NCBI GenBank assembly: GCA_965242865.1
Contig: CBDETK010000013.1
Coordinates: forward strand, 3,744,001-3,808,000
From: Candidatus Latescibacterota bacterium
GTDB lineage: Bacteria; Latescibacterota; UBA2968; UBA8231
Length of the DNA: 64,000 nucleotides
Reading direction: 5' to 3'
The position numbers were made by a program, and so were the translations under genes. The number at the start of each line of letters is the position of its first letter. Position 1 is the stretch's first letter. This document shows, in pieces, positions 1,670 through 36,914 of this stretch. A model generated the notes under the pieces. It was not told the origin of the DNA and searched no databases. It saw nothing but the letters and a program-made list of their open reading frames with translations.

Positions 1670-2890
1670 ATGTCCATGCCCGCACTCGACGGCATCCGCG
1701 TCCTCGACTTTACCCAGGTGATCTTCGGCCCGGCCGCGACCCAAGTTTTGGCCGACCACGGCGCGGAAGTCATCAAGATAGAACGCCCGGACGGCGACCT
1801 AGCCCGCGCCTTTGGGCCGTGGGTACAGGAGCAAAGCCTGCCTTTTGCCAGCCTCAACCGCTCCAAGAAAAGCCTAGTGGTCGATCTCAAGAAGTCCGCT
1901 GGGCGTCAGATCGTCCACCGCCTGTTGGACAACACGGACGTGCTGGTCCACAACTTCCGCTCCGGTGCCGTCATGGCCAAGCTGGGGCTAGATTACGCGG
2001 CACTGCGGGAGCCATACCCGAGGCTCATCTATGCCGTTGGCTCGGGCTATGGCTCGCAAGGCCCGTACAGCGAGCGCAACAAGGGCGGCCACGAGTCCAT
2101 GGCCCAAGCACTGAGCGGCGTGGCGGCTCGCTTCGTCGGCCCCCACAACACGCCCCAGCGCTTGCCCTATACCGTGGCCGACTTCAACGGCGGCATGTTG
2201 CTGGCGCAGGGCATTCTCCTCGCGCTGTTGGCCCGCGAGCGCACGGGCACCGGGCAATACGTAGAAACCTCGCTCCTCGACGGCATGATCAGTATGCAGG
2301 CGTGGGCGACGACCAAAATTCTCAACTTGGGCGACGACGGAGAAGACGATGGCTCGGGCGGAGCCACGCATCCGCGCGGCAACCCGCTCGACGGAGCGGT
2401 GTTCAAAACGGCCGATGGCTTCTTGATGGTCACCGCGCTTTTCCGCCCCTTTGACCACCTGTTGCGCGACTTGCAGGAGGCCCTAGCGATTGAAGGGCTC
2501 GTCGGAGATCCGCGCTTTGCCACGCTCGCCGCGGCCGTAGAGCACCGTGCGGCCCTGCGAGAACGGCTCGTGCCGGTCTTCGCAGAAAAAACGAATGCCG
2601 AGTGGATTCCGCTGCTCGAAGCCAAGGACATCCTCGTCGCACCAGTGCGCTCGACCGCCGAGGCCCTAGCAGATCCTCAACTCGCGGTCAACGAGATGAT
2701 AGTCGAAGTCCAGCATCCGCAGGTAGGTGCTATGCGCCACGTTGGCACCCCCCTGCGGCTAGCGGGAACGCCCGCCCCCACCCCAGCCTCGGCCCCGCTA
2801 GCCGGGGAACACACCGAGGCCGTGCTGCGCGAGGCCGGGTACTCAGAACCCGAGATCGCCGCGTTGTACGAGCAGGACGTCATTTTCTGA
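1670..2890 (+). CDS. Family III CoA-transferase (CaiB/BaiF)
   Basis: LDGIRVLDFTQ..GP, GAEVIKIE, NRSKKS, DVLVHNFR, catalytic Asp in TVADFNGG. ATG at 1670 follows the upstream stop. Confidence 0.9.
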   Translation: MSMPALDGIRVLDFTQVIFGPAATQVLADHGAEVIKIERPDGDLARAFGPWVQEQSLPFASLNRSKKSLVVDLKKSAGRQIVHRLLDNTDVLVHNFRSGAVMAKLGLDYAALREPYPRLIYAVGSGYGSQGPYSERNKGGHESMAQALSGVAARFVGPHNTPQRLPYTVADFNGGMLLAQGILLALLARERTGTGQYVETSLLDGMISMQAWATTKILNLGDDGEDDGSGGATHPRGNPLDGAVFKTADGFLMVTALFRPFDHLLRDLQEALAIEGLVGDPRFATLAAAVEHRAALRERLVPVFAEKTNAEWIPLLEAKDILVAPVRSTAEALADPQLAVNEMIVEVQHPQVGAMRHVGTPLRLAGTPAPTPASAPLAGEHTEAVLREAGYSEPEIAALYEQDVIF

Positions 2891-3888
2891 TGGAACAGGA
2901 ACAGATGACCAACATTGTGCGCTATGGGCTGTTGGGCACCGCCCAGATTGCCCTCAACCGCCACCTGCCGGCCGCGCAGGCCACAGACCATGCCGAGATC
3001 GCCGCCGTATCGAGCCGGGACCCAGCCAAGGCCGAAGCGAGCGCGGCCCAATGGGGCATTGCCAAGGCGTACGGCTCGTACCAAGCCGTGCTGGACGACC
3101 CCGAAATCGACGCGGTCATCAACCCCTTGCCCAATAGCATGCACTGCGAGTGGACGGTCAAGGCCGCGCAGGCCGGCAAGCACATCCTCTGCGAAAAGCC
3201 GCTCGCCGTTACGGTGGCCCAAGTGCAGCAGATGATCGACGCGGCTGAAGCCAACGGCGTGCTCTTAACCGAGGCCTTCACCCACCGCCTCAATCCGCAG
3301 TTGCAGTGTGCGCGTCGGCTGGTACAGCAGGGGGAGATCGGCGAGGTAAAGTTGGCGCGGGCCGAGCTGACCTTTGGCATCCGCGATTGGGCCACCGACA
3401 TCCGGGCCAAGCGCGAATTGGGCGGAGGCGCGCTCTGGGATGCTGGGTGCTACTGCGTCAGCGCAGTGCGCTTTGTGCTCAATGCCGAGCCAGTGGCCGC
3501 GCAGGCTTTTCAGCATCTGCGCCAGGGCGTGGATGCGACCTTGGCCGGGTTGTTGCGCTTTCCCGGCGACCGGGTCGCCTATATCGCGGCCGGCATGGAG
3601 GAGCCGTTTCGTTGCGTGTTGGAGATCGTCGGCAGCCACGGCGCGGTTCGCGTCCCCAACATGTTCGACGAGCAGGCCGCGGTCCATATCGCCATTGGCA
3701 ACGACGAGCGCGTGGAGACCTTCTCCGGGCCGGATCGCTTTCAAGTCCAGCTAGCGCGTTTTTCTAGTTGTATTCTTCAAGGCAAGACCCCGGAATTCCC
3801 TCCCGCAGATGGCCTCAAGAACGTGGCCGCGCTATGGGCGTTGAAGCAGGCCGCCGAATCGGGAAGCCTCGTTGAAATACCGTCTTGA
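2890..3888 (+). CDS. Gfo/Idh/MocA oxidoreductase
   Basis: RYGLLGTAQIA, HILCEKP, GGGALWDAGCY. Start 2890 (overlapping the upstream TGA) or 2905. Confidence 0.9.
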   Translation: MEQEQMTNIVRYGLLGTAQIALNRHLPAAQATDHAEIAAVSSRDPAKAEASAAQWGIAKAYGSYQAVLDDPEIDAVINPLPNSMHCEWTVKAAQAGKHILCEKPLAVTVAQVQQMIDAAEANGVLLTEAFTHRLNPQLQCARRLVQQGEIGEVKLARAELTFGIRDWATDIRAKRELGGGALWDAGCYCVSAVRFVLNAEPVAAQAFQHLRQGVDATLAGLLRFPGDRVAYIAAGMEEPFRCVLEIVGSHGAVRVPNMFDEQAAVHIAIGNDERVETFSGPDRFQVQLARFSSCILQGKTPEFPPADGLKNVAALWALKQAAESGSLVEIPS

Positions 3889-8134: not shown

Positions 8135-9088
8135 TCAAGCACCTGCGGCGCGGGTGCGAACTTGGTCGAGGCCGACGGCCAACAGGAGCACTGCACCGCG
8201 CGTTACATCCTGCCAGAAGCTAGACACATCCATCAGGGTCAGCCCGTTGTTGAGGGTGCCGAGCAAGAGCACCGCCAACAAGGTCCCCCACACCGTGCCG
8301 CGCCCCCCGAAGAGACTCGTGCCGCCCAAGATGACGGCCGCGATCACCGTCAACAGGTGCTGCCCGGCCGCGTCGGGTGCGGCTGCGTAGAGCATGGCCG
8401 CCAAAATTAGGCCGCTGACCGCGCCGCTGAGGCCGGAGAGAACGTAGAGGATCATCAGGGTGCGGGCGACCGGGACGCCGACGAGGCGGCTGGCCTCGGG
8501 GTTGCTGCCGGCGGCATAGACGAAGCGGCCAAATCGGGTCCGCGCTAGGACCCAGCCGAGCGCGATATAAACCAACAGCATCAGCACCAGCGGCACTGGC
8601 AGCCGCAAAAGCTGGCCGCTGCCGATCCAGTTGAAACCGGGTTCCATCAGCGGTTTGGTTAGCCCGCCGGTCAAGACTAGGGCCAACCCGCCGATGACGC
8701 TCATCGTGCCCAAGGTGGCGATGAGCGGATTGATCCCGAGGCGCACGGCCAGCAGGCCATTGAGCAGCCCGATGCCTCCGCCCAGTGCTAAAGCGGCGAG
8801 ACAGGCCGCGACCATGCCGACGCCCGCGGCGTGGAGCAGGGCGACGACGACTCCAGCGAGCCCGGCGACCGCGGCCACCGACAGATCGAGCCCTCCGGCG
8901 ATAATCAGCGGCGTTTGCAACGCGCACATCAATCCGATAAAGGCCATGTTGACGCCGATGCTCATCATATTGTCAAAGGACAAAAACCAAGGCGAGAGGA
9001 CGCTGAAAAGCCCGGCGACCAAGAGGTAGAACGCCAACAACAAGGCGACGCCCGCACCGGAGCGGTTCAATAAGGCGGCGATGCTCAT
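8135..9088 (-). CDS. Sugar ABC transporter permease (RbsC-like)
   Basis: GGLDLSV, PLIATLG, TRFGRFVYAAGSNPEASRLVG, IAAVILGGTSLFGGRG. Confidence 0.9.
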   Translation of the reverse strand: MSIAALLNRSGAGVALLLAFYLLVAGLFSVLSPWFLSFDNMMSIGVNMAFIGLMCALQTPLIIAGGLDLSVAAVAGLAGVVVALLHAAGVGMVAACLAALALGGGIGLLNGLLAVRLGINPLIATLGTMSVIGGLALVLTGGLTKPLMEPGFNWIGSGQLLRLPVPLVLMLLVYIALGWVLARTRFGRFVYAAGSNPEASRLVGVPVARTLMILYVLSGLSGAVSGLILAAMLYAAAPDAAGQHLLTVIAAVILGGTSLFGGRGTVWGTLLAVLLLGTLNNGLTLMDVSSFWQDVTRGAVLLLAVGLDQVRTRAAGA

Positions 9089-10587
9089 AGATAGTCTTTC
9101 GCAGGGGGGATATGGAGCAAGTCGGCCGGGGCCGCGCCGCCGGAAAAGCGGCTGGCCACCCGGCCGCGGTCCAGTACGATGGAACGGTCGCAGACGCCAG
9201 CGACTTCTTCGGCGTCAGAGGAAATCAAGAGTACGGCAAGCCCTCGTTGGCTCCACTGCCGCAGCACCAAGTAGAGCTCGTGACGAGCACCCACATCGAC
9301 GCCTCGGGTCGGTTCTTCAAGGATGAGTACTGCCAGATCTTCGACCAGCCAACGGGCTAGGCAGACCTTCTGCTGGTTGCCGCCCGAGAGCAAGCGCAGA
9401 GGTTGGTCGAGGTGAGCGGTGCGAATGCCTAGGCGGTCCACCCAGCGTTGCGCGTGGCTTGCTTCGCGCGGCTTGGACACGGAGAACAAGCGCACGAAGT
9501 GGTCGATAAAGGGCAAGGTGATATTGGCCCGAACCCCGAGGTCGGGGACGATGCCTTCGCGCTGGCGTTCGGCCGCCACAAAACCGATTCCCGCGTCGCG
9601 GCCCCGGCGCGGGTTGGTCGGGAGATATGGAACCCCCGTGAGCGTAAGGCGGGCGCCGGGCAGCGGCCCCAATGCGCCGTAGATGGCCCGGCCGAGCTGG
9701 TCAATGCCCGAGCCGAGCAAGCCGAAGACGCCAAAAATCTCGCCGCGGTGGAGCGCGAAGGACACGCTGTCGAGGGAGTCGGGCAGGCTCAGATTTTCAA
9801 CCTCCAGCGCAACCTCGCCGCCGTGTGCGCCGCGCGGCGGGTAGAGTTCGTCCACGGTGGTGCCGAGCATGGCGTCGAGCACTTCGCGCCGCGAAGCCGT
9901 GGCAGGGGCAAAGTCTCCGGCGTTCAGCCCGTCGCGCAGCACGGCGATGCGGCCGGCGATCGCGAAAACCTCGTCGAGGTAGTGGGAGATGTAAATGATG
10001 CCGATCTGCTGCTCTTTGAGCCGCTCGATGACGGCGAAGAGCGTTTGGACCTCGCGGTCGGCGAGGGCCGCGGTCGGCTCGTCCATGACGATGATCCGCG
10101 CTTGGCCAGCGAGGGCGCGGGCGATTTCTACTAGTCGCTTGTGCGGCGCGGAAAGCCGCTGGACCAGCGCGTCGGGGTCGAGGTCGCAGCCGAGCCGGTC
10201 GAGCAATGCCCGCGCTTGGGTGTGCAGTGCCGGGCGGTCCACTCCGCCCGAGCGTTTGATCGGCAGGTCCGCGATGAGGATGTTTTCGGCGACCGTGAGG
10301 TCGGGCAAGACCGATACTTCCTGCGGCAAAAAGCGGACGCCGTGGGCGATGGCCGCTTCGGGCTGGTCGTAGCGCACCGCGTGGTCGTTGACGCGGACGA
10401 TGCCAGCGTCGCGGCGGTACACGCCGCAGAGGATTTTCACCAAAGTAGATTTCCCCGCTCCGTTGGCCCCCAGCAGTGCTAAGACCTCTCCGGCGTCTAA
10501 ACGGAGATCGACCTCGCGCAAAACTTGGGCGCGGCCAAAGGATTTGCAGATGCCCGCCATCTGCAACAAGGGTGCGGTGTGCCCCAT
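9085..10587 (-). CDS. Sugar ABC transporter ATP-binding protein (RbsA-like, two NBDs)
   Basis: GANGAGKST, MDEPTAAL, LSGGNQQK, EEPTRGVD. Confidence 0.9.
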   Translation of the reverse strand: MGHTAPLLQMAGICKSFGRAQVLREVDLRLDAGEVLALLGANGAGKSTLVKILCGVYRRDAGIVRVNDHAVRYDQPEAAIAHGVRFLPQEVSVLPDLTVAENILIADLPIKRSGGVDRPALHTQARALLDRLGCDLDPDALVQRLSAPHKRLVEIARALAGQARIIVMDEPTAALADREVQTLFAVIERLKEQQIGIIYISHYLDEVFAIAGRIAVLRDGLNAGDFAPATASRREVLDAMLGTTVDELYPPRGAHGGEVALEVENLSLPDSLDSVSFALHRGEIFGVFGLLGSGIDQLGRAIYGALGPLPGARLTLTGVPYLPTNPRRGRDAGIGFVAAERQREGIVPDLGVRANITLPFIDHFVRLFSVSKPREASHAQRWVDRLGIRTAHLDQPLRLLSGGNQQKVCLARWLVEDLAVLILEEPTRGVDVGARHELYLVLRQWSQRGLAVLLISSDAEEVAGVCDRSIVLDRGRVASRFSGGAAPADLLHIPPAKDYL

Positions 10588-10589
10588 GC

Positions 10590-11762
10590 TCAGTGGTCGG
10601 GAATCAACTGCTCGTACCCGGCGAGTTCGGGCTTGTCCCTGAGCGTGGCCAAGTGTTCGCCAAAGGCCGCCTGCGGGAAGACGTAGTCGAAGCCTTGCTC
10701 GCCGTGGCATTCGTATTCGGGGTAGAATTGACAGATGTTGGCCGGGTGGATCATTACGTGGTTGACGGTGACCGCCGGTGGCACATCGCGGCCCGCTAAG
10801 CGCATCAGGCCCAGCGGGACGAGGTAGTTGCCGTAGCGCTCGGGGAAGTAAGCGACTGAGGCGATGAAATGCTCCTCGGCGACCATCGTCTCCAACTCAT
10901 CGGCCCCCTTGCCGACGACCAGTGCGTCTGCGCCGCGCCCCTGCTGTTGCACGGCGCGCAACATGCCGGAGACCGACTGGTCGTTGATGGCGGTGATCAG
11001 GATCGGCGCGCCTTGGGGGATGCGGCCGAGCGCGTTGCTCATCTGCTGGAAGGAATACTGGAGCGTGTTTTTGGTGTCGATGCGGATGATGCGCTCCGGG
11101 GGGAAGCCGGGCAGCGAGGCGAGGAAGCCGGCGATCTGTCCCTCGGTGCGCATGGCGGGAATCGCGCCCGACTGCGGCAGTTCGCCCACGACGAAATACC
11201 CCTCGGTGAGTGCCCGCTCGCCAAAGCGCGCTTTGGCCGCCTGCGCTAGGTAAGAGCCGCCCATAAAGCCGGAGCGGGGGTTGTTGGCCCCGAAGTAAGT
11301 GGCCCCCGGCATGGGGATGTCGATGGCGACCACGCCGATCTGCTTGCGGTTGAAGTGCTGCATGATCGCCGGGCCGAAGTTGACGTCGGTTTGGAACTCG
11401 ATGCAGAAGTCAACTTGACGCCGGGCGAAGCTCTCGGCGTTGGCGAGGGCGGTCGGCCCGTCGAGCCGGTTGTCGGCGATCAGCAATTCGATGCCGGCGG
11501 CCGCCGCGTTGCGTTCAATGCTCTTTTCGACCTTGATGCCAAAGCTGATGTCGCGCTGCAAGTTGGCGAAGCCAAAGACGAGGGCTTGGCCGTTCTTAGG
11601 GGGCGAGTGTTGCGCGGCTTCGGCAGCCATTGCTTGGAGCACTGCCGGAGGAAGCATTAGCCCGTCGTAGGTCGCGGGGTCAAAGCCGTGGAAGTCTTCG
11701 CTCGATGCGGAGACCGGGGCAAAGAACAAACAGGCGGCTAGAATGAGGCGGGTCGAGGTCAT
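10590..11762 (-). CDS. Sugar ABC substrate-binding protein
   Basis: Signal peptide MTSTRLILAACLFFAPVSA; class I SBP motifs VVAIDIP, INDQSVSG; first gene of the ABC operon. Confidence 0.8.
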   Translation of the reverse strand: MTSTRLILAACLFFAPVSASSEDFHGFDPATYDGLMLPPAVLQAMAAEAAQHSPPKNGQALVFGFANLQRDISFGIKVEKSIERNAAAAGIELLIADNRLDGPTALANAESFARRQVDFCIEFQTDVNFGPAIMQHFNRKQIGVVAIDIPMPGATYFGANNPRSGFMGGSYLAQAAKARFGERALTEGYFVVGELPQSGAIPAMRTEGQIAGFLASLPGFPPERIIRIDTKNTLQYSFQQMSNALGRIPQGAPILITAINDQSVSGMLRAVQQQGRGADALVVGKGADELETMVAEEHFIASVAYFPERYGNYLVPLGLMRLAGRDVPPAVTVNHVMIHPANICQFYPEYECHGEQGFDYVFPQAAFGEHLATLRDKPELAGYEQLIPDH

Positions 11763-11772
11763 AGAGGCACTT

Positions 11773-11894
11773 TCGTTTGGGAATGGACTGAGAATATACG
11801 GCGCGGCTAGCGGGTGGCTCAAGGCGCGGCGATGCGGTTGGTTACCGTGACCCTCCCCGCCCCGCTGGATTCCGGCCTTCGCCGGAATGACGGT
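11773..11894. repeat. Direct repeat copy A (promoter + REP-like hairpin)
   Basis: 11773-11833 is identical to 13018-13078 (61 nt), followed by shared GCGGTTGGTTAC and a near-identical hairpin at 11865-11892. Confidence 0.9.
11793..11822 (-). promoter_or_regulatory. Sigma70-type promoter for the sugar ABC operon
   Basis: Minus strand TTGAGC-N18-TATATT, about 30 nt upstream of the SBP start. Confidence 0.55.
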
Positions 11895-11933
11895 CCTTTC
11901 TTTTGCAGACTGTCCCTTAGTGCCGCCTCAATA

Positions 11934-13001
11934 TCAGCGACCGTTAGCGACTGACGGGCTAAACCCCCGAACCTGAAGCTCATGGAACGGCAGCCCCGTC
12001 TCTAATACGGTTTGTTCCCATGGATCCAACAATAATGATCGCTCTTCCAGATACTCGATCAACTCATCAGCCAGAATACTAAAGAACTTGGTTGGTTCAA
12101 CCAGATGATACAAAACAAGTGCTATATCCTGCGCTTCAGATTTCGTGACAGATAGCTCCTTCAAAGCATTGCGCTGTACCGTAGCACTCTCCCAGTATCC
12201 AGTGAATATTCTAGCTCTGTGTAGATAGCCACGTGTACTCCTTAGTTGATTGGTTAGATAGTCGATTTCGGACTGGATGGTCTCTAATGTCGTTCGCATT
12301 TTGACATTCTCAACAAACGGAAGTATCATGCTCAGGAGTTCATATTGCACTTTGCTTAGAATGGAAAAGAAGTCAGCGGAATCGGACTTCTTGGCGCACT
12401 CTACGAAGTGCCGAAATTCCGAATTGTAAGTTTTGCTTATAGCGATACGACGCATGACTTCATCGATCTCTTTCTCGCAGAAGAATAGCGCTGCTTCTCG
12501 CAAGGCGGACCGCGTGTCTTCCGAAGAGTGAATCACACACATCACAATATTCTGTGCGTCAAATTCGTAACGAAGCTCGCCCGGTACAGTCAAAGCGGGG
12601 TTGGAGGACCCCTTGAAAGAATTCAAAACCGTCGATACGTCATTTCCTAGTTTCAAAGAGTCACCGACAACAAGAACAGGCATACAAGGCGAAAGTCGAT
12701 AGTACCGGGGAGTCAACCACCACATCGGTCGATTCCCATGTCTCATCAGTCGGCATTGGGTGTACCGGTACAATTCCTCTATGACTCGGTCGTGCGGCGT
12801 TGCCAATTTTGAAGCACCAAAGTAGATCGCACGTGCTTGAAGAAATTTTCTGATAGCATCTGTTTGTCCTCGATACACTGCATCGGGGCGAATTATCAGA
12901 AACCCGATGTCTGAGATTCGCGGACCCCATTTCATAGCAATTCGGTCCGGGACTTCAAAGTCGTTTTCAACTAGGGATGTCAATACTCGTTCTATGTTCA
13001 T
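11934..13001 (-). CDS. Nucleoside-diphosphate-kinase-like protein with long C-terminal extension (low GC)
   Basis: NDK motifs FLIIRPDAVYRG, GSSNPALTVPGELR, VIHSSED..ALREAALFF; visibly AT-richer than the flanks. Confidence 0.7.
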   Translation of the reverse strand: MNIERVLTSLVENDFEVPDRIAMKWGPRISDIGFLIIRPDAVYRGQTDAIRKFLQARAIYFGASKLATPHDRVIEELYRYTQCRLMRHGNRPMWWLTPRYYRLSPCMPVLVVGDSLKLGNDVSTVLNSFKGSSNPALTVPGELRYEFDAQNIVMCVIHSSEDTRSALREAALFFCEKEIDEVMRRIAISKTYNSEFRHFVECAKKSDSADFFSILSKVQYELLSMILPFVENVKMRTTLETIQSEIDYLTNQLRSTRGYLHRARIFTGYWESATVQRNALKELSVTKSEAQDIALVLYHLVEPTKFFSILADELIEYLEERSLLLDPWEQTVLETGLPFHELQVRGFSPSVANGR

Positions 13002-13017
13002 GGGACTATGCTGACCG

Positions 13018-13175
13018 TCGTTTGGGAATGGACTGAGAATATACGGCGCGGCTAGCGGGTGGCTCAAGGCGCGGCGATTGCTTTTCAGGGGCGATGCGGT
13101 TGGTTACTATTGAGCACGACGCCGGGCGCGACTCGCCCCTCCCCGCTGGATTCCGGCTTTCGCCGGAATGACGGT
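13018..13175. repeat. Direct repeat copy B (promoter + REP-like hairpin)
   Basis: Matches copy A with 17 extra nt at 13079-13095 between GGCGAT micro-repeats; hairpin at 13146-13173. Confidence 0.9.
13038..13067 (-). promoter_or_regulatory. Sigma70-type promoter for the NDK-like gene (duplicate of 11793-11822)
   Basis: Minus strand TTGAGC-N18-TATATT. Confidence 0.55.
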
Positions 13176-13217
13176 GTAAGAGAGGGTGAGTGTCCCCATC
13201 GCTAACAGGAGAGAATT

Positions 13218-14354
13218 ATGCTGACTAAAGAAGGATGCCGCACGCGGCAGCAACGCCTGTGTGCGCGGCTGGCCGAACTCGACATTGACGCGGCCGTGAT
13301 CAATCACCCGAAGGAAATCTACTACTTCACCGGGATCATCATCCCCGAAGAGTTTCCCGGTCCGCCGGCCCTCTTCTGGCTGGAGGCCGATGGGCGCTCC
13401 TTGCTGATCGCGCATACCGACGCCGGCGAGCCGTGCACCGACGAGTGTGTCACCTTTCCCCTCAGCGTCGGCGGCACGGTCTCGCCCGACCTGCGCGAGG
13501 CGATAAGCGGGCGGATCGCCGATGCGCTGCGTGCCAAAAAGCTGGCCGCCGGTCGCTTGGGATGGCAGAGCGAGTGTTTGCCGCGTCGCTTGGGACAGGC
13601 GGTTGAAGAAGGGCTGGGCAAAACGCCGGTATGGGTTGCGGTTGATGACTTGCTCGCCGACCTGCAGGAGGTCAAAGACCCCGACGAGATCGAGCTGCTG
13701 CGCAAGGCCGTGCAGGTTGATCTGGCCGCATACTCCGCGGCGGAAGCGGCGATCGCACCGGGCGTCAACGAGTTGGAGGTGCTCGCGGCAGCGCAACGAG
13801 CAGCGCACCTTGCGGCCGGCGAGAAAGTTTTCCACGACGGCGATTACCAGTGCGGCGAGTTGGGCGGTTTTGCGCGCAATCGCCCGATTGAGGCCGGAGA
13901 AATCTACGTCATTGACGCTTGGTCGGTGTACCGCGGCTACTGGGCGGATTTGTGCCGCAGCTTTGCAGTGGGTGAGCCGACCGAGGTGCAGCACTCCGTC
14001 TTTGAGCACGTCAAGGGCTTTCACAATCGCGTCGGCGAGTACTTGCAGCCGGGCAAGGATGGCCGCGAGTGCGCGGTGGCCATGGACGCCTATATCCGCG
14101 AGCATCCCAAATTGGCCGACGTTGGCTTGATCCATCACGCCGGGCACAACATCGGCCTCCGGGCGCACCAGATGCCCGATCTCAACAAGGAGCGCGGCGG
14201 CACCTTGCGCGTGGGCAATGTGGTCTCGGTCGAGCCCGGGGCCTATATCCCCGAAGCGCGGGCCGGGGTGCGGCTGGAAAACATATACCTGATTACCGAG
14301 GACGGCTTGGAAAACCTGTCTCCGTATCCAATGGAATTGGGGGCGCACTGTTGA
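13218..14354 (+). CDS. M24 family (Xaa-Pro) peptidase
   Basis: VKDPDEIE, YVIDAW..GYWADLCRSF, HAGHNIGL, SVEPGAY, GVRLEN; AGGAG RBS. Confidence 0.85.
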   Translation: MLTKEGCRTRQQRLCARLAELDIDAAVINHPKEIYYFTGIIIPEEFPGPPALFWLEADGRSLLIAHTDAGEPCTDECVTFPLSVGGTVSPDLREAISGRIADALRAKKLAAGRLGWQSECLPRRLGQAVEEGLGKTPVWVAVDDLLADLQEVKDPDEIELLRKAVQVDLAAYSAAEAAIAPGVNELEVLAAAQRAAHLAAGEKVFHDGDYQCGELGGFARNRPIEAGEIYVIDAWSVYRGYWADLCRSFAVGEPTEVQHSVFEHVKGFHNRVGEYLQPGKDGRECAVAMDAYIREHPKLADVGLIHHAGHNIGLRAHQMPDLNKERGGTLRVGNVVSVEPGAYIPEARAGVRLENIYLITEDGLENLSPYPMELGAHC

Positions 14355-16772: not shown

Positions 16773-17942
16773 TCAGGAAATTATCTCACCGGCCCACAGC
16801 AACTGTAAAAACGCTTTCCAAGGCACAATGCGAATTGGACCGACGACTCGCTCGGCCGGTTCGTTGCAAACGACAAGTGCTTTTTTTGGGGTGTATTCAT
16901 CGATAAATGCGCGTAGGGGCCGAAGGGCTTTATCTTCTACCCGGCACGTGCCCTTTACCTCAATGGCGACCTCGCCGTTGCCCAGCACAAAGTCAACCTC
17001 TAGTCCCGACTTGGTGCGCCAAAAGTGGACATCGTACTGTAACGCGCTGTAAGAAGTATATGCTCTCAATTCGCAAAAAATAAAGTGCTCAAACGCTTGG
17101 CCAAAAACGGCACCTTGGGCGTCCTGCAAATGTCGTCTCGCAAGCACTCCGGCCACGCCCACATCAAATAAGTAGAACTTAGACGCTCTCGAAATGACTT
17201 GGCGGCTTTGTCGCCTCTTGAAAGGTGCGACCATGCTGCCCAAAAGCGTATCGACGAGAATCTGATAGTACTCCTTCACGGTCTTGGAACTCACACCGCA
17301 CACTCGGGCGATATTGGAAAAGTTGGTCAACTCGCCGTGCGAGTATCCCATCGCCTCAAAAAATCTGGAAAATGCCGGAATATCGCGCGTCAAGCCCTCG
17401 GCAAAAACCTCTTCCTTTAGGTAATCTTGCAGGTATGCGTTCAGAGAACGGCGGTACTGAACGCTGGCAAAGTGATCGGGGATCAGGCCGCGATTCAAGA
17501 TAGTCAAAAGGTCCATATCGCCGTCATTCAACTCGTCCGTCACCAACGGAAACATTTCGTAGCGCCACGCCCGTCCGCCGAGCAAGTTAGCTCGTCCCCG
17601 CTTGAGCTTGCGCGCACTGGAACCACACAGAATAAAACGCAGCCCCTTGTTTTCGATGAGCCAATGCACTTCATCTAACAAGAGCGGCACGCGCTGCACT
17701 TCGTCCAAGAGGATCGGACGCGCCGCCAGCAATGCTTCGGGTTGTGCGAGTAGCTGTTCGCGCAACAGGGCTGGCCGCCGGTTGAAGTCCAGCATCAAAT
17801 CCGTCTTTAGAAAATCATAGACTAGGCTGTTGGGAAACGCTTGTTTGAGATAGGTGGATTTCCCCGTCTTGCGCGGTCCCCACAAAAAGGCCGACTGCCG
17901 ATTGGGCAAGTCCATCTCTAATCGTCGCCGATACTGAACCAT
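16773..17942 (-). CDS. AAA_14 ATPase with DUF4143 and C-terminal PD-(D/E)XK-like motif
   Basis: GPRKTGKST, LLDEVQ, CGSSARKL, KFYLFDVG, FWRTKSGLEVDFV..AIEVK. Confidence 0.9.
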   Translation of the reverse strand: MVQYRRRLEMDLPNRQSAFLWGPRKTGKSTYLKQAFPNSLVYDFLKTDLMLDFNRRPALLREQLLAQPEALLAARPILLDEVQRVPLLLDEVHWLIENKGLRFILCGSSARKLKRGRANLLGGRAWRYEMFPLVTDELNDGDMDLLTILNRGLIPDHFASVQYRRSLNAYLQDYLKEEVFAEGLTRDIPAFSRFFEAMGYSHGELTNFSNIARVCGVSSKTVKEYYQILVDTLLGSMVAPFKRRQSRQVISRASKFYLFDVGVAGVLARRHLQDAQGAVFGQAFEHFIFCELRAYTSYSALQYDVHFWRTKSGLEVDFVLGNGEVAIEVKGTCRVEDKALRPLRAFIDEYTPKKALVVCNEPAERVVGPIRIVPWKAFLQLLWAGEIIS

Positions 17943-18696: not shown

Positions 18697-19080
18697 CTAC
18701 GACACCAACACCATCCCATCGCACAATGCCTGTCGCACAAAGGCATTGCCCTCCTCCAGCAACGCAGCCAGTTCCTCCCGCGTGTACGCTATGACATCGA
18801 CCCCCACGCCCACATCCGCCGGTCGGTAGCGCACCGCCCGATCCAAAAACGGCTCGGTGCTGTGGCTTACCACGATTAGCAGATCGGCATCGCTACCCGG
18901 CACCGCATCGCCCCGAGCCAGCGAGCCGAACAGCACGATCCGCTCGATCTCGGGGTGCTGCTCACTCAGTACCTGAGCAGCTCTCTTGAGACGCGCTATG
19001 AGGCGGGGGCGGTCCAGCCAGAACACCTTCACAGAAGCCGATGACTTGGCCGGCGTGGACGAGCGCACGTTCTGCTTCAT
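18697..19080 (-). CDS. Minimal nucleotidyltransferase (MNT) antitoxin
   Basis: LFGSLARGDAVPGSDADL (GSx10DxD), VDVIAYT; start uncertain, overlaps the HEPN 3' end. Confidence 0.85.
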   Translation of the reverse strand: MKQNVRSSTPAKSSASVKVFWLDRPRLIARLKRAAQVLSEQHPEIERIVLFGSLARGDAVPGSDADLLIVVSHSTEPFLDRAVRYRPADVGVGVDVIAYTREELAALLEEGNAFVRQALCDGMVLVS

Positions 19081-19402
19081 CGTGGGTGTAATACTCATAG
19101 GGTGCTCCTTGTGGATGCGAATTGGGGTAGCGAGCAGGGATATAGTGTTTGTCCAACGCTTTGGCGGCATCCAGCAACTGCTGACTGGGCTTGAGCACCT
19201 CGGGCAAAGACTCTAACAAGGCCGTAACAGAATGCCCCCAAGCCGTGCCGCCCATCTTCTCGACAACCGCCTTGACGGCTTTTTCCGCGCCTTGTTGGGC
19301 GGCAAAGCAAGCCCACTCATAGTCTCCAGCGTTGAGCGAGCGGCGTCCGTGGTCCAAGTCTCGCTGGCCCTGTTTTAGCCAGTCGGTATGTCGGCTCGCC
19401 AT
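18962..19402 (-). CDS. HEPN-domain protein (toxin of HEPN/MNT pair)
   Basis: WLKQGQRDL, YEWACFAAQQGAEKAVKA, WGHS, LDKHYIPARYPNSH. Confidence 0.9.
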   Translation of the reverse strand: MASRHTDWLKQGQRDLDHGRRSLNAGDYEWACFAAQQGAEKAVKAVVEKMGGTAWGHSVTALLESLPEVLKPSQQLLDAAKALDKHYIPARYPNSHPQGAPYEYYTHDEAERALVHAGQVIGFCEGVLAGPPPPHSASQESCSGTE

Positions 19403-19410
19403 GGCTACTC

Positions 19411-20484
19411 TTAGAACGCCGGAATGAACTTGTGGCACACGGGCGATGGCACTTCTGCTTTGTGGCCGGTCGGCGTCAGCTTGCCGGTGTCTGGATCGAC
19501 GCGGAAGGTGAAGATGTCGTCGGTGCTGTGGTTGCCGACGATTAGGTACGCGCCCGTGGGGTCGAGGCCAAAGTTGCGCGGGTTGGCTCCGCCAGTCGGC
19601 ACGATCTCGACGAGTGCGAGCTGGCTGGAGTCTGGGTCAATGGCATAGACGGCAATGGAGTCGTGGCCGCGATTGGACCCGTAGAGAAAGCGGCCGTTGG
19701 GGTGGACGTGGATGTCTGCGGTGTGGCTGACCTCGGCATAGCCTTCGGGCAGTGTTGAGATGGTCTGAGTGGTGGTGAGCGTACCAGCGTCGGCGTCGTA
19801 GTCGAAAGCCGTGATGGTGTTGCTCAGCTCGTTGATGACGTAAGCCCGTTGGCCATCGGGGTGGAAGGCGAGGTGGCGCGGACCACTGCCGGGGGCTATT
19901 GCCGGGGGCGTCTGTGCGCGGAGCGTCCCCTTGTCGTGGTCAATCGCATAGATGAGCACCTTGTCGATGCCCAAGTCTGGGGCCAAGGCGTGTTTGTTGT
20001 TGGGGGACACCATAATTGAGTGAGCGTGTGGCCCCTCTTGGCGGCTTGAGTTGACCGAAGAACCCTCGTGTTGGACAAAGTCCGTGGCCGCGCCGAGCGA
20101 GCCGTCTTCGCGGATTGGCAAAATGGCGACGCTGCCGCCGCCGTAGTTGGCTACCAGCGCGTACTGGCCCTCGCGGTCAATGCTGATGTGGCAAGGGCCG
20201 CGGCCAATGGTTGATTCGGTGTTGATGTGGGTCAAGGCCCCGGTCTGCTGGTCAATAGCAAAGGCCGCAACCGCGCCGCCGGGCCGGTCGCCGACCGCGC
20301 TGGTCTCGCCGATGGCGTAGAGGAAGCGGCGGTTGGGAGCGATGTCGAGGAAAGAAGGGTTGTCAATGCCGCCAATGCTGCTTTGGTGTGCGAGCGCACC
20401 CGTGGCCATGTCGAGGCGATAGACGTGGATGCCGTCCTCGTCGCCACTGGAATAGGTGCCGATATAGACGAGATAGTCGCTCAT
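19411..20484 (-). CDS. pgl: 6-phosphogluconolactonase/lactonase family beta-propeller
   Basis: YIGTYS, NPSFL, VANYGGGSV, RQEGPHAH, GSGPRH, YGSNRGHDSI, PRNF; AAGGAG RBS before 20484, alternative start 20553. Confidence 0.85.
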   Translation of the reverse strand: MSDYLVYIGTYSSGDEDGIHVYRLDMATGALAHQSSIGGIDNPSFLDIAPNRRFLYAIGETSAVGDRPGGAVAAFAIDQQTGALTHINTESTIGRGPCHISIDREGQYALVANYGGGSVAILPIREDGSLGAATDFVQHEGSSVNSSRQEGPHAHSIMVSPNNKHALAPDLGIDKVLIYAIDHDKGTLRAQTPPAIAPGSGPRHLAFHPDGQRAYVINELSNTITAFDYDADAGTLTTTQTISTLPEGYAEVSHTADIHVHPNGRFLYGSNRGHDSIAVYAIDPDSSQLALVEIVPTGGANPRNFGLDPTGAYLIVGNHSTDDIFTFRVDPDTGKLTPTGHKAEVPSPVCHKFIPAF

Positions 20485-36083: not shown

Positions 36084-36914
36084 TCAGAGTTTGATGACGG
36101 CGATGAGGATGCCAGTGATGGCGACCAAGGTCGTCATCGTCCACCTGAAGTAGGCATCCATGCGCTTATTGGTCTCGTCGATGCGGCGGTGAACGGCTCC
36201 TATCTGATTGCGTAGGTCTTGGATTTGTTCACTCAACGAGCGGTTGGTCTCGTCAATGCGGTGGTGAGACGCTTGGATTTGTTCACTCAACGAGCGGTTG
36301 GTCTCGTCAATGCGATGGTGAGACGCTTGGATTTGTTCACTCAACGAGCGGTTGGTCTCGTCAATGCGATGGTGAACGGCTCCTACCTGATTACGCAGAT
36401 CTTGGATTTGCTCGCCTAACGAGAGATTGGTCTCGTCGATGCGATGGTGAACGGCTCCTACCTGATTGCGTAGGTCTTGGATTTGTTCACTCAACGAGCG
36501 GTTGGTCTCGTCGATGCGATGGTGAACGGCTCCTACCTGATTGCGTAGGTCTTGGATTTGTTCACTCAACGAGCGGTTGGTCTCGTCGATGCGATGGTGA
36601 ACGGCTCCTATCTGATTACGCAGATCTTGGATTTGTTCACTCAGCGAGAGCTTGGTCTCATCGATGCGCTGGTGAGCCGCTTGGATTTGTTCGCCCAACG
36701 AGCGGTTGGTCTCGTCGATGCGATGGTGAACGGCTCCTACCTGATTGCGTAGGTCTTGGATTTGTTCACTCAACGAGCGGTTAGTCTCGTCGATGCGATG
36801 GTGAACGGCTCCTACTTGATTACGCAGGTCTTGGATGTCTTCGCGCAGATAGCTGATGCCCCAGTGCAGGTCTTCGGAGATGGGACGAGGTTGAGGGGTG
36901 GGACTATCGGTCAT
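36084..36914 (-). CDS. Tandem-repeat coiled-coil protein with C-terminal membrane anchor
   Basis: 25-aa and 18-aa repeats; C-terminal TM WTMTTLVAITGILIAVIKL; AAGGAG RBS. Confidence 0.85.
   Translation of the reverse strand: MTDSPTPQPRPISEDLHWGISYLREDIQDLRNQVGAVHHRIDETNRSLSEQIQDLRNQVGAVHHRIDETNRSLGEQIQAAHQRIDETKLSLSEQIQDLRNQIGAVHHRIDETNRSLSEQIQDLRNQVGAVHHRIDETNRSLSEQIQDLRNQVGAVHHRIDETNLSLGEQIQDLRNQVGAVHHRIDETNRSLSEQIQASHHRIDETNRSLSEQIQASHHRIDETNRSLSEQIQDLRNQIGAVHRRIDETNKRMDAYFRWTMTTLVAITGILIAVIKL
36165..36836 (-). repeat. Coding tandem repeat of 75-nt and 54-nt units
   Basis: IQDLRNQVGAVHHRIDETNRSLSEQ x7 (last partial) and IQASHHRIDETNRSLSEQ-type x3; near-identical DNA. Confidence 0.9.

Follow-up and report, generated by a model that had tools for sequence, protein, structure and literature searches.

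How does a single gene of low GC content come to lie between two copies of the same hairpin and promoter-like unit, with no recombinase among the genes scanned around it? The question is raised by a 64,000-nucleotide (nt) stretch, hereafter the window, of the genome of a Candidatus Latescibacterota bacterium (GenBank assembly GCA_965242865.1, contig CBDETK010000013.1, positions 3,744,001 to 3,808,000), in which a gene for a protein resembling nucleoside diphosphate kinase (NDK) interrupts the region between an M24 peptidase gene and an ATP-binding cassette (ABC) transporter operon. The original prediction, made from the letters of the window, read the arrangement as a foreign gene captured as a cassette, through a repetitive extragenic palindrome (REP)-templated or circle-mediated event with an integron-like outcome. 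The best explanation, which we hold with reasonable confidence, is that the foreign gene was inserted with a duplication of about 158 nt of native DNA, reaching from the hairpin to the leader, and that the locus belongs to the class termed insertion with long target duplication. The parts of the locus, in window coordinates, are:

13018..13175, minus strand: target copy B, 158 nt, adjoining the M24 peptidase gene; comprises the hairpin (13127-13175), an upstream element carrying the CCTGAAAAG motif, and the 61-mer, within which lies the promoter-like site (13067 to 13038); the single copies of relatives and of the run X4 strain with an empty site match this one
11895..13017, minus strand: foreign insert, 1123 nt, GC 0.47, its ends set by aligning both copies
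11934..13001, minus strand: NDK-like gene, 355 amino acids (Pfam NDK, profile, structure model)
11773..11894, minus strand: target copy A, 122 nt, adjoining the ABC operon; comprises the hairpin (11846-11894), the 18-mer and the 61-mer, the promoter-like site running from 11822 to 11793
10590..11762, minus strand: gene for a periplasmic binding protein, at the head of the ABC transporter operon (Pfam Peripla_BP_4)
9085-10710: ATPase gene of the ABC operon (Pfam ABC_tran)
8135-9088: permease gene of the ABC operon (Pfam BPD_transp_2)
13218..14354, plus strand: divergent M24 peptidase gene, bounding the intergenic region (Pfam Peptidase_M24, Creatinase_N)

Read along the minus strand, the M24 peptidase start (13218) is followed by a spacer, hairpin B, the upstream element, the promoter-like site, 17 nt and the foreign gene, and this gene in turn by hairpin A, the promoter-like site again, 10 nt past the end of identity, and the binding-protein gene. 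The two copies share an exact repeat of 61 nt (11773-11833 = 13018-13078), a further exact repeat of 18 nt (11828-11845 = 13090-13107) and hairpin segments of 49 nt with 90% identity (11846-11894 versus 13127-13175), and a gapped alignment of the 122 nt of copy A with the 158 nt of copy B gives 117 matches. An exact 61-mer repeat inside 1.3 kb is far beyond chance. A genome-wide search for this 61-mer, proposed in the original prediction, finds these two sites only in the 5,997,474-base genome; five further matches cover the hairpin only. The predicted identity of 61 nt, with TTGAGC-N18-TATATT in both copies on the minus strand, is borne out by the repeat search and by the promoter call, in which 9 of 12 positions agree with the consensus. 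Identity had been placed as ending about 20 nt past the -10 and does end at 20 nt by alignment, which leaves 10 nt to the ATG of the binding-protein gene (11762) and 17 nt to that of the inserted gene (13001). The 17-nt indel said to distinguish the copies is present, but a second indel of 19 nt and five substitutions accompany it: copy A is without 19 nt and 17 nt of the upstream element (AACCGCATCGC.CCTGAAAAG, window 13079-13126 versus 11834-11845), which is kept in copy B and lost from copy A, and all five substitutions lie in the hairpin half. Inside the insert GC is 0.43-0.51, and in the flanks 0.59-0.69.

Empty alleles with one copy, for which the original prediction had called, exist in relatives. 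The flanks are matched in all 24 same-genus genomes and the protein in none of them (E ≤ 0.001); among the other species of the genus the cargo protein is found in 0/30 at E ≤ 1e-10, and with the low GC this upholds the reading of the gene as foreign. In seven genomes (G003, G006, G010, G011, G012, G021 and G023) the two flank alignments overlap on the subject by 51-60 nt, and the site is therefore empty in them. Nineteen loci of relatives were taken, 17 of which have both anchors; their intergenic regions measure 163-696 nt and the promoter core occurs once in 17/17. About 100 nt beside the operon are conserved among the 17, and further upstream the region is hypervariable, with hairpins that differ by eye. 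The CCTGAAAAG motif is found in 16 of the 17 relatives and in copy B, and is absent from copy A. As judged from these sequences, copy B is the ancestral full form. The lost upstream element may belong to the divergent M24 peptidase gene, because it is conserved across species and adjoins that gene only in copy B. A search of 11600-13400 against Rfam at E ≤ 1 returned no match, and therefore the conserved leader is not a described RNA family.

An empty site is also found in public sequencing data. Fifteen runs from seven studies, with no RNA run listed among them, share part of the stretch, five of them with half or more of the sampled words, and four runs were examined as contig sets with k=31 graphs. 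The dominant strain of run X4 (depth 282-288) is about 3% diverged (33 differences over 1017 nt of the operon flank), and is devoid of the gene (depth 0-13); the unitigs stop at 11817 and resume at 13033, an overlap of 30 letters in copy-B coordinates, and therefore this strain has an empty site in which a single copy carries the B-type left part. The same data bear on the concern that the structure is an assembly artefact, produced by a mis-joined repeat or by an episome that was merged into the chromosome. A 61-nt exact repeat is too long to be ordered by contig graphs with k=31 alone, but in run X1 the depths of the flanks (188.5 and 200.5) and of the gene (191.4) are equal and the 61-nt unitig reaches 372.3, roughly twofold, which is the expectation for two chromosomal copies. 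Both junctions are also crossed by pieces of run X5, which comes from a different study (11804-12021 with 5 differences, 12569-13078 with 15), and the empty-site strain of X4 is resolved separately. An artefact, named in the original prediction as an outcome that would have undone it, is thus a negligible prospect. Excision of the gene by recombination between the copies, also raised there, is possible in principle; in the best-covered run the depth of the gene equals that of the flanks. In contigs its products would leave no trace, because an excised junction has no 31-mer that the full structure lacks. Two joints at the hairpin (11893 to 13146 and 11894 to 13148, with a shorter side of 23-27 letters) were discounted, since they probably stem from other members of the repeat family.

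The intergenic site is a hot spot of change, as follows from its varied contents and rearrangements across relatives. The loci of G001 and G019 are without the left anchor and are rearranged. In G001 a TnpB-type gene (G001:C1:654600-656800, open reading frame (ORF) 527-1888) lies between the promoter core and the binding-protein gene, with 84.5 bits to Cas12f1-like_TNB and 26.6 bits, under the cut-off, to OrfB_IS605; in G019 the promoter core stands in front of a PhyH-family gene. The TnpB-type insertion of G001 is about 10 nt from the junction used by the NDK-like insert. The variable part of five other relatives (G002, G004, G005, G007 and G008) contains a low-GC stretch of about 250-300 nt with, by eye, a small opposite-strand ORF having cysteine pairs and a hydrophobic N-terminus.

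The locus is not alone in its genome. The genome was scanned for pairs of identical, directly repeated segments (≥40 nt, 250-8000 nt apart) that enclose DNA with a GC at least 0.07 below both flanks; the filter yielded 23 rows, from which this locus and eight others were picked and their boundaries refined. Each of the eight further islets is a low-GC insert (573-4821 nt, GC 0.44-0.53 versus 0.606 for the genome) between duplicated native DNA of 97-394 nt with 94-100% identity. All eight lie outside the window:

Islets 1-4: G000:C13:511841-517029; 1813560-1818286; 2599339-2600105; 2624018-2627409
Islets 5-8: G000:C13:2629968-2632682; 3001545-3002888; 3997801-4000072; 4770083-4774278

By Pfam, their cargoes are a type III restriction-modification pair; McrBC and a methylase; a MazF/PemK pair; an AAA_15/AAA_21/DUF3696 ATPase and an RNA ligase; a Dam methylase and an unannotated protein; an HNH endonuclease; a HindIII restriction-modification pair; and an HD-domain gene with unannotated genes. 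The existence of other repeat-flanked cargo had been foreseen in the original prediction. The duplicated segments of these islets are mostly coding and are without this hairpin or promoter; several are gene ends or starts, for instance a second C-terminal fragment of an SDR gene, a second FG-GAP/ASPIC fragment and a repeated AP_endonuc_2 N-terminus. The insert ends of the nine islets, compared by eye, have no common motif.

Comparison of the islets with relatives had mixed outcomes. Of 15 same-genus relatives compared at the McrBC islet, 13 have flank alignments that overlap on the subject (179-248 nt in the three pairs worked out), and the insert has no match in any. At the MazF islet the flanks of three relatives are separated by 87-100 nt, about the length of one copy, in a sequence too diverged to align. 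At the Dam islet G007 has an empty site with an overlap of 386 nt, and five other relatives carry the cassette in another arrangement. The HindIII cassette is present in three species and its flanks are nearly contiguous in at least five, with a geometry that is no simple match to its 47-nt exact repeat. The flanks of the HNH islet are about 20 kb apart in relatives. Apart from the islet itself (L049), the 561-nt MazF cassette has an 89% identical copy in another species, at an unrelated locus (G012:C1:4495500-4501200, 2557-3117), at which no flanking repeat was detected. Another direct repeat came out of the genome-wide repeat scan within the window, exact over 72 nt (36427-36498) with a spacing of 279 nt.

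Insertions of this kind have been described since 2000, and their mechanism is still unsolved; the founding paper is said to be that of Nobusato et al. in 2000 (Gene 259:99). Restriction-modification units inserted with long, variable target duplications and with no other mobile element are treated in the consulted part of Furuta, Abe and Kobayashi 2010 (PMC2853133), where the screen asks for a duplication >30 bp, an insert <20 kb, no mobility genes, an empty site in a relative, and R and M homologs, and where the cases include types I-IV, a lone mcrA and an orphan methylase. The same part of that paper offers no established mechanism; double-strand breakage and a hypothetical virus-like cycle are suggested, with only amplification shown. 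The class is recognised for "other DNAs" too in the portion consulted of PMC3457768, and a phrase search of the literature from 2012 onward, over titles and the starts of abstracts, turned up no paper that appears to resolve the mechanism. Set against that screen, the repeats here are 122 and 158 nt with 117 matches; the related empty sites have a single copy (17/17 cores, seven genomes and the X4 strain); the insert is 1123 nt with no mobility gene among the 24 ORFs scanned in the window; and the repeat is not a multi-copy one, the 61-mer occurring at two sites and just the hairpin part recurring. The cargo is NDK-like and supplies no R or M homolog. The locus thus has the structural properties asked of an insertion with long target duplication and departs from the published screen only in its cargo.

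Such a scar could arise by a recombinase-free, illegitimate joining of both ends of a foreign DNA to the chromosome at offset points, which may be given by a staggered break or by two sister chromosomes. Survivors would be seen only where the interval between the points was duplicated rather than deleted, because both neighbours then stay intact. At this locus the hairpin and promoter were duplicated because the landing site lay in the operon leader, and it is through landing in a 5′ leader that the duplication would supply promoters: the foreign gene would be transcribed from the native promoter retained in copy B, and the operon from copy A. The upstream half of copy A, being redundant, may later have decayed by the deletions of 19 and 17 nt and the five substitutions, with the 79-nt core kept identical by selection on both core promoters. 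Selection on the core promoters together with upstream decay most simply explains the uneven divergence of the copies. The original prediction that the insertion left the gene and the resident operon each with a promoter holds as far as the promoter-like site is present in both copies, but expression from each is something that we infer.

Several points weigh against this account. Promoter activity is predicted from just the 9/12 consensus match. The mismatches between the copies are uneven, 5/49 in the hairpin part versus 0/79 in the core (Fisher p 0.007), and could mean that the left part of copy A stems from a different allele. The HindIII, Dam and HNH islets are not clean cases. The published screen required R and M genes, and an NDK-like cargo is neither. 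The mechanism is one that we infer, and the consulted parts of the literature likewise give none that is established.

The asymmetry of the copies raises, as an alternative, the import of a donor allele, in which the gene already stood in the variable intergenic part of another strain, followed by hairpin A and a shortened promoter, and came in as a circle through a single crossover in the core, or else through homology-facilitated illegitimate recombination with its anchor in the promoter or operon; copy A would then owe its left part to the donor. This would account for copies that are identical over 79 nt and, in the left part, differ by five substitutions and two indels; upstream of the core the 17 relatives are indeed hypervariable and contain other inserted DNA, and the inserted material amounts to a 1245-nt unit that can be permuted as a circle. 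However, an import would leave the duplication still to be explained, now in the donor; the 30 species of the genus yielded no such allele, the eight other islets have the same build with near-identical coding copies, and the same asymmetry is explained by core-promoter selection and decay of the redundant upstream part. We consider the import unlikely. Alternatively, the promoter region may have been duplicated in tandem beforehand, with foreign DNA later filling the interval between the duplicates or taking its place, a pathway offered for the same scar in rRNA operons in the consulted part of PMC3457768. No bare tandem duplication is seen in any relative or strain, 17/17 having one core, and two rare events would be needed at each of nine sites, which makes this order of events very improbable.

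The remaining alternative stems from the hairpins themselves, and supposes a dedicated REP/RAYT-templated or integron-like capture system that recombines at the hairpin-plus-promoter unit. About 90 copies of the hairpin family lie within five mismatches of the core, and the CCGG variant of the hairpin has only four copies in the genome, two of which flank the gene in direct orientation; the outcome also resembles a cassette behind a resident promoter. But the duplicated segment includes native single-copy DNA, and the duplicates that flank the other eight islets are mostly coding and without this hairpin. The 24 window ORFs scanned (73-28128) matched no transposase, integrase or recombinase family, in keeping with the original prediction that no recombinase is nearby. 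The original prediction had advised a look for a RAYT/TnpA(Y1) gene beside such hairpins elsewhere; the sole match to the Y1 transposase (PF01797) in the genome is G000:C13:3384741-3384935, about 370 kb away, and is partial (profile positions 58-121, 30.5 bits, within a 268-residue open frame). A REP-templated, RAYT-linked or integron-like mechanism, as first proposed, is disfavoured by the recurrence of the same build eight times with mostly coding duplicates; such a system is scarcely credible here, and the hairpin-plus-promoter pair is not supported as a capture device. The other two CCGG hairpins lie 424 nt apart at G000:C13:1491977 and 1492401, beside a low-GC stretch (GC 0.42-0.48) that by eye encodes a small HicB-like protein.

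The identification of the cargo as NDK-like, made in the original prediction, is supported by Pfam, by a profile compared with NDKs in the PDB, by Foldseek and by residue alignment. The N-terminal NDK-like domain spans residues 34-179 and scores 40.4 bits to Pfam NDK (PF00334) against a gathering cut-off of 27, and the family profile matches the PDB NDKs with an E of 1.5e-24. The AlphaFold2 model of the 355-residue protein (pLDDT 91.9, pTM 0.90) matches NDKs in Foldseek with a target-normalised TM of 0.75-0.89 over about 148 columns, the matches spanning the NDK domain only. The histidine of NDK has an active-site role; His158 aligns with the His of the IHxS motif in NDK chains and is invariant in 13 and in 51 aligned members. 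The protein is not matched at the equivalog level of housekeeping NDK (NCBIfam 41.9 bits versus a cut-off of 155). Like canonical NDK, its N-terminal 150 residues have the NDK fold with His158 aligned; unlike canonical NDK, it is more than twice as long and has an extra C-terminal domain. This C-terminal half is all-helical in the model, with no match in Foldseek and a score below 0.9 in the atlas look-up.

Relatives of the protein are rare. A word-based search of 5.8 billion proteins gave five, and an exhaustive search 225 cluster representatives at E ≤ 0.001 and 13 at E ≤ 1e-30, from a family of about 350 residues; a partial homolog (P0001) is 93% identical to the cargo protein. A scan of genome contigs with the single cargo protein detected no close relative, and with the family alignment 11 distant loci; the metagenome scan gave one locus. 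At two Paenibacillus loci and one Bdellovibrionales locus the gene of the distant homolog is placed after a flavin monooxygenase gene, with at least one of aldo/keto reductase, HAD, AAA_28, MazG or NTP_transf_5 nearby at two of the three. In Streptomyces, one locus has it placed after a radical SAM gene and close to PP-binding and NTP_transf_5 genes. By these gene orders, the distant homologs look like members of biosynthetic or nucleotide-handling operons. The NDK-like gene at the present locus stands alone in its insert. The PADLOC defence models gave 0 families for the cargo protein. A selfish or defence role of the NDK-like protein is a possibility by analogy, conceivable because defence and addiction genes entered this genome by the same kind of event. 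Two genes about 4-6 kb from the insert, one for an AAA_14/DUF4143 ATPase (16776-17942) and one for a HEPN-domain protein (18965-19438), have a third-position GC below that of their neighbours.

A single event would both express the newcomer and keep the resident operon expressed. The nine islets, with empty sites in relatives and co-occurring strains, form a data set for junction rules, and the cargo family, about 350 residues with an NDK and a helical domain, is rare and uncharacterised. It is tempting, if doubtful, to extend the argument and take recombinase-free insertion with long target duplication as a main route by which this sponge-associated lineage acquires small selfish or defence modules, the NDK-like protein itself being such a module. 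The example at this locus might then be, for instance, a nucleotide-targeting defence or addiction gene wired to a host promoter by the duplication, which is likewise a speculative reading.

The locus shares features with several known systems. Hairpins of a family with about 90 copies stand on both sides, as would be familiar from REP/REPIN-RAYT and IS200/IS605 elements. However, a REPIN/RAYT arrangement comprises an inverted REP pair with a Y1 transposase, and here the hairpins are direct rather than inverted, the duplication extends into single-copy DNA, and neither a Y1 transposase nor a TnpB occurs within the insert or close to it. With integron cassettes it has in common a promoterless gene behind a resident promoter, and flanking repeats whose recombination could in principle remove the gene. 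Unlike an integron, which has an adjacent IntI, no integrase domain is found in the 24 ORFs of window 73-28128, the repeats copy the local target rather than being borne by the cassette, the 3′ hairpin belongs to the family of the host, and no attC-like site turned up, although no attC model was applied. In Neisseria, minimal mobile elements are variable cassettes between conserved genes and are presumably exchanged through homologous recombination of the flanking DNA; the present site resembles them in holding hairpins, a small low-GC ORF, a TnpB element or the NDK-like gene according to species, but those elements leave no target duplication. The closest parallel is the long-target-duplication class, in which a small low-GC insert without mobility genes likewise lies between direct target repeats of >30 bp, long and variable in length, that are single-copy at the empty site of relatives and unique in the genome. 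The differences from that class are a cargo of one NDK-like gene instead of restriction or modification genes, a target that is a 5′ leader with a promoter instead of a gene end, and two copies that differ by two deletions. What is new here is the NDK-like cargo, the landing in a 5′ leader that supplies promoters, and the presence of nine islets in one genome.

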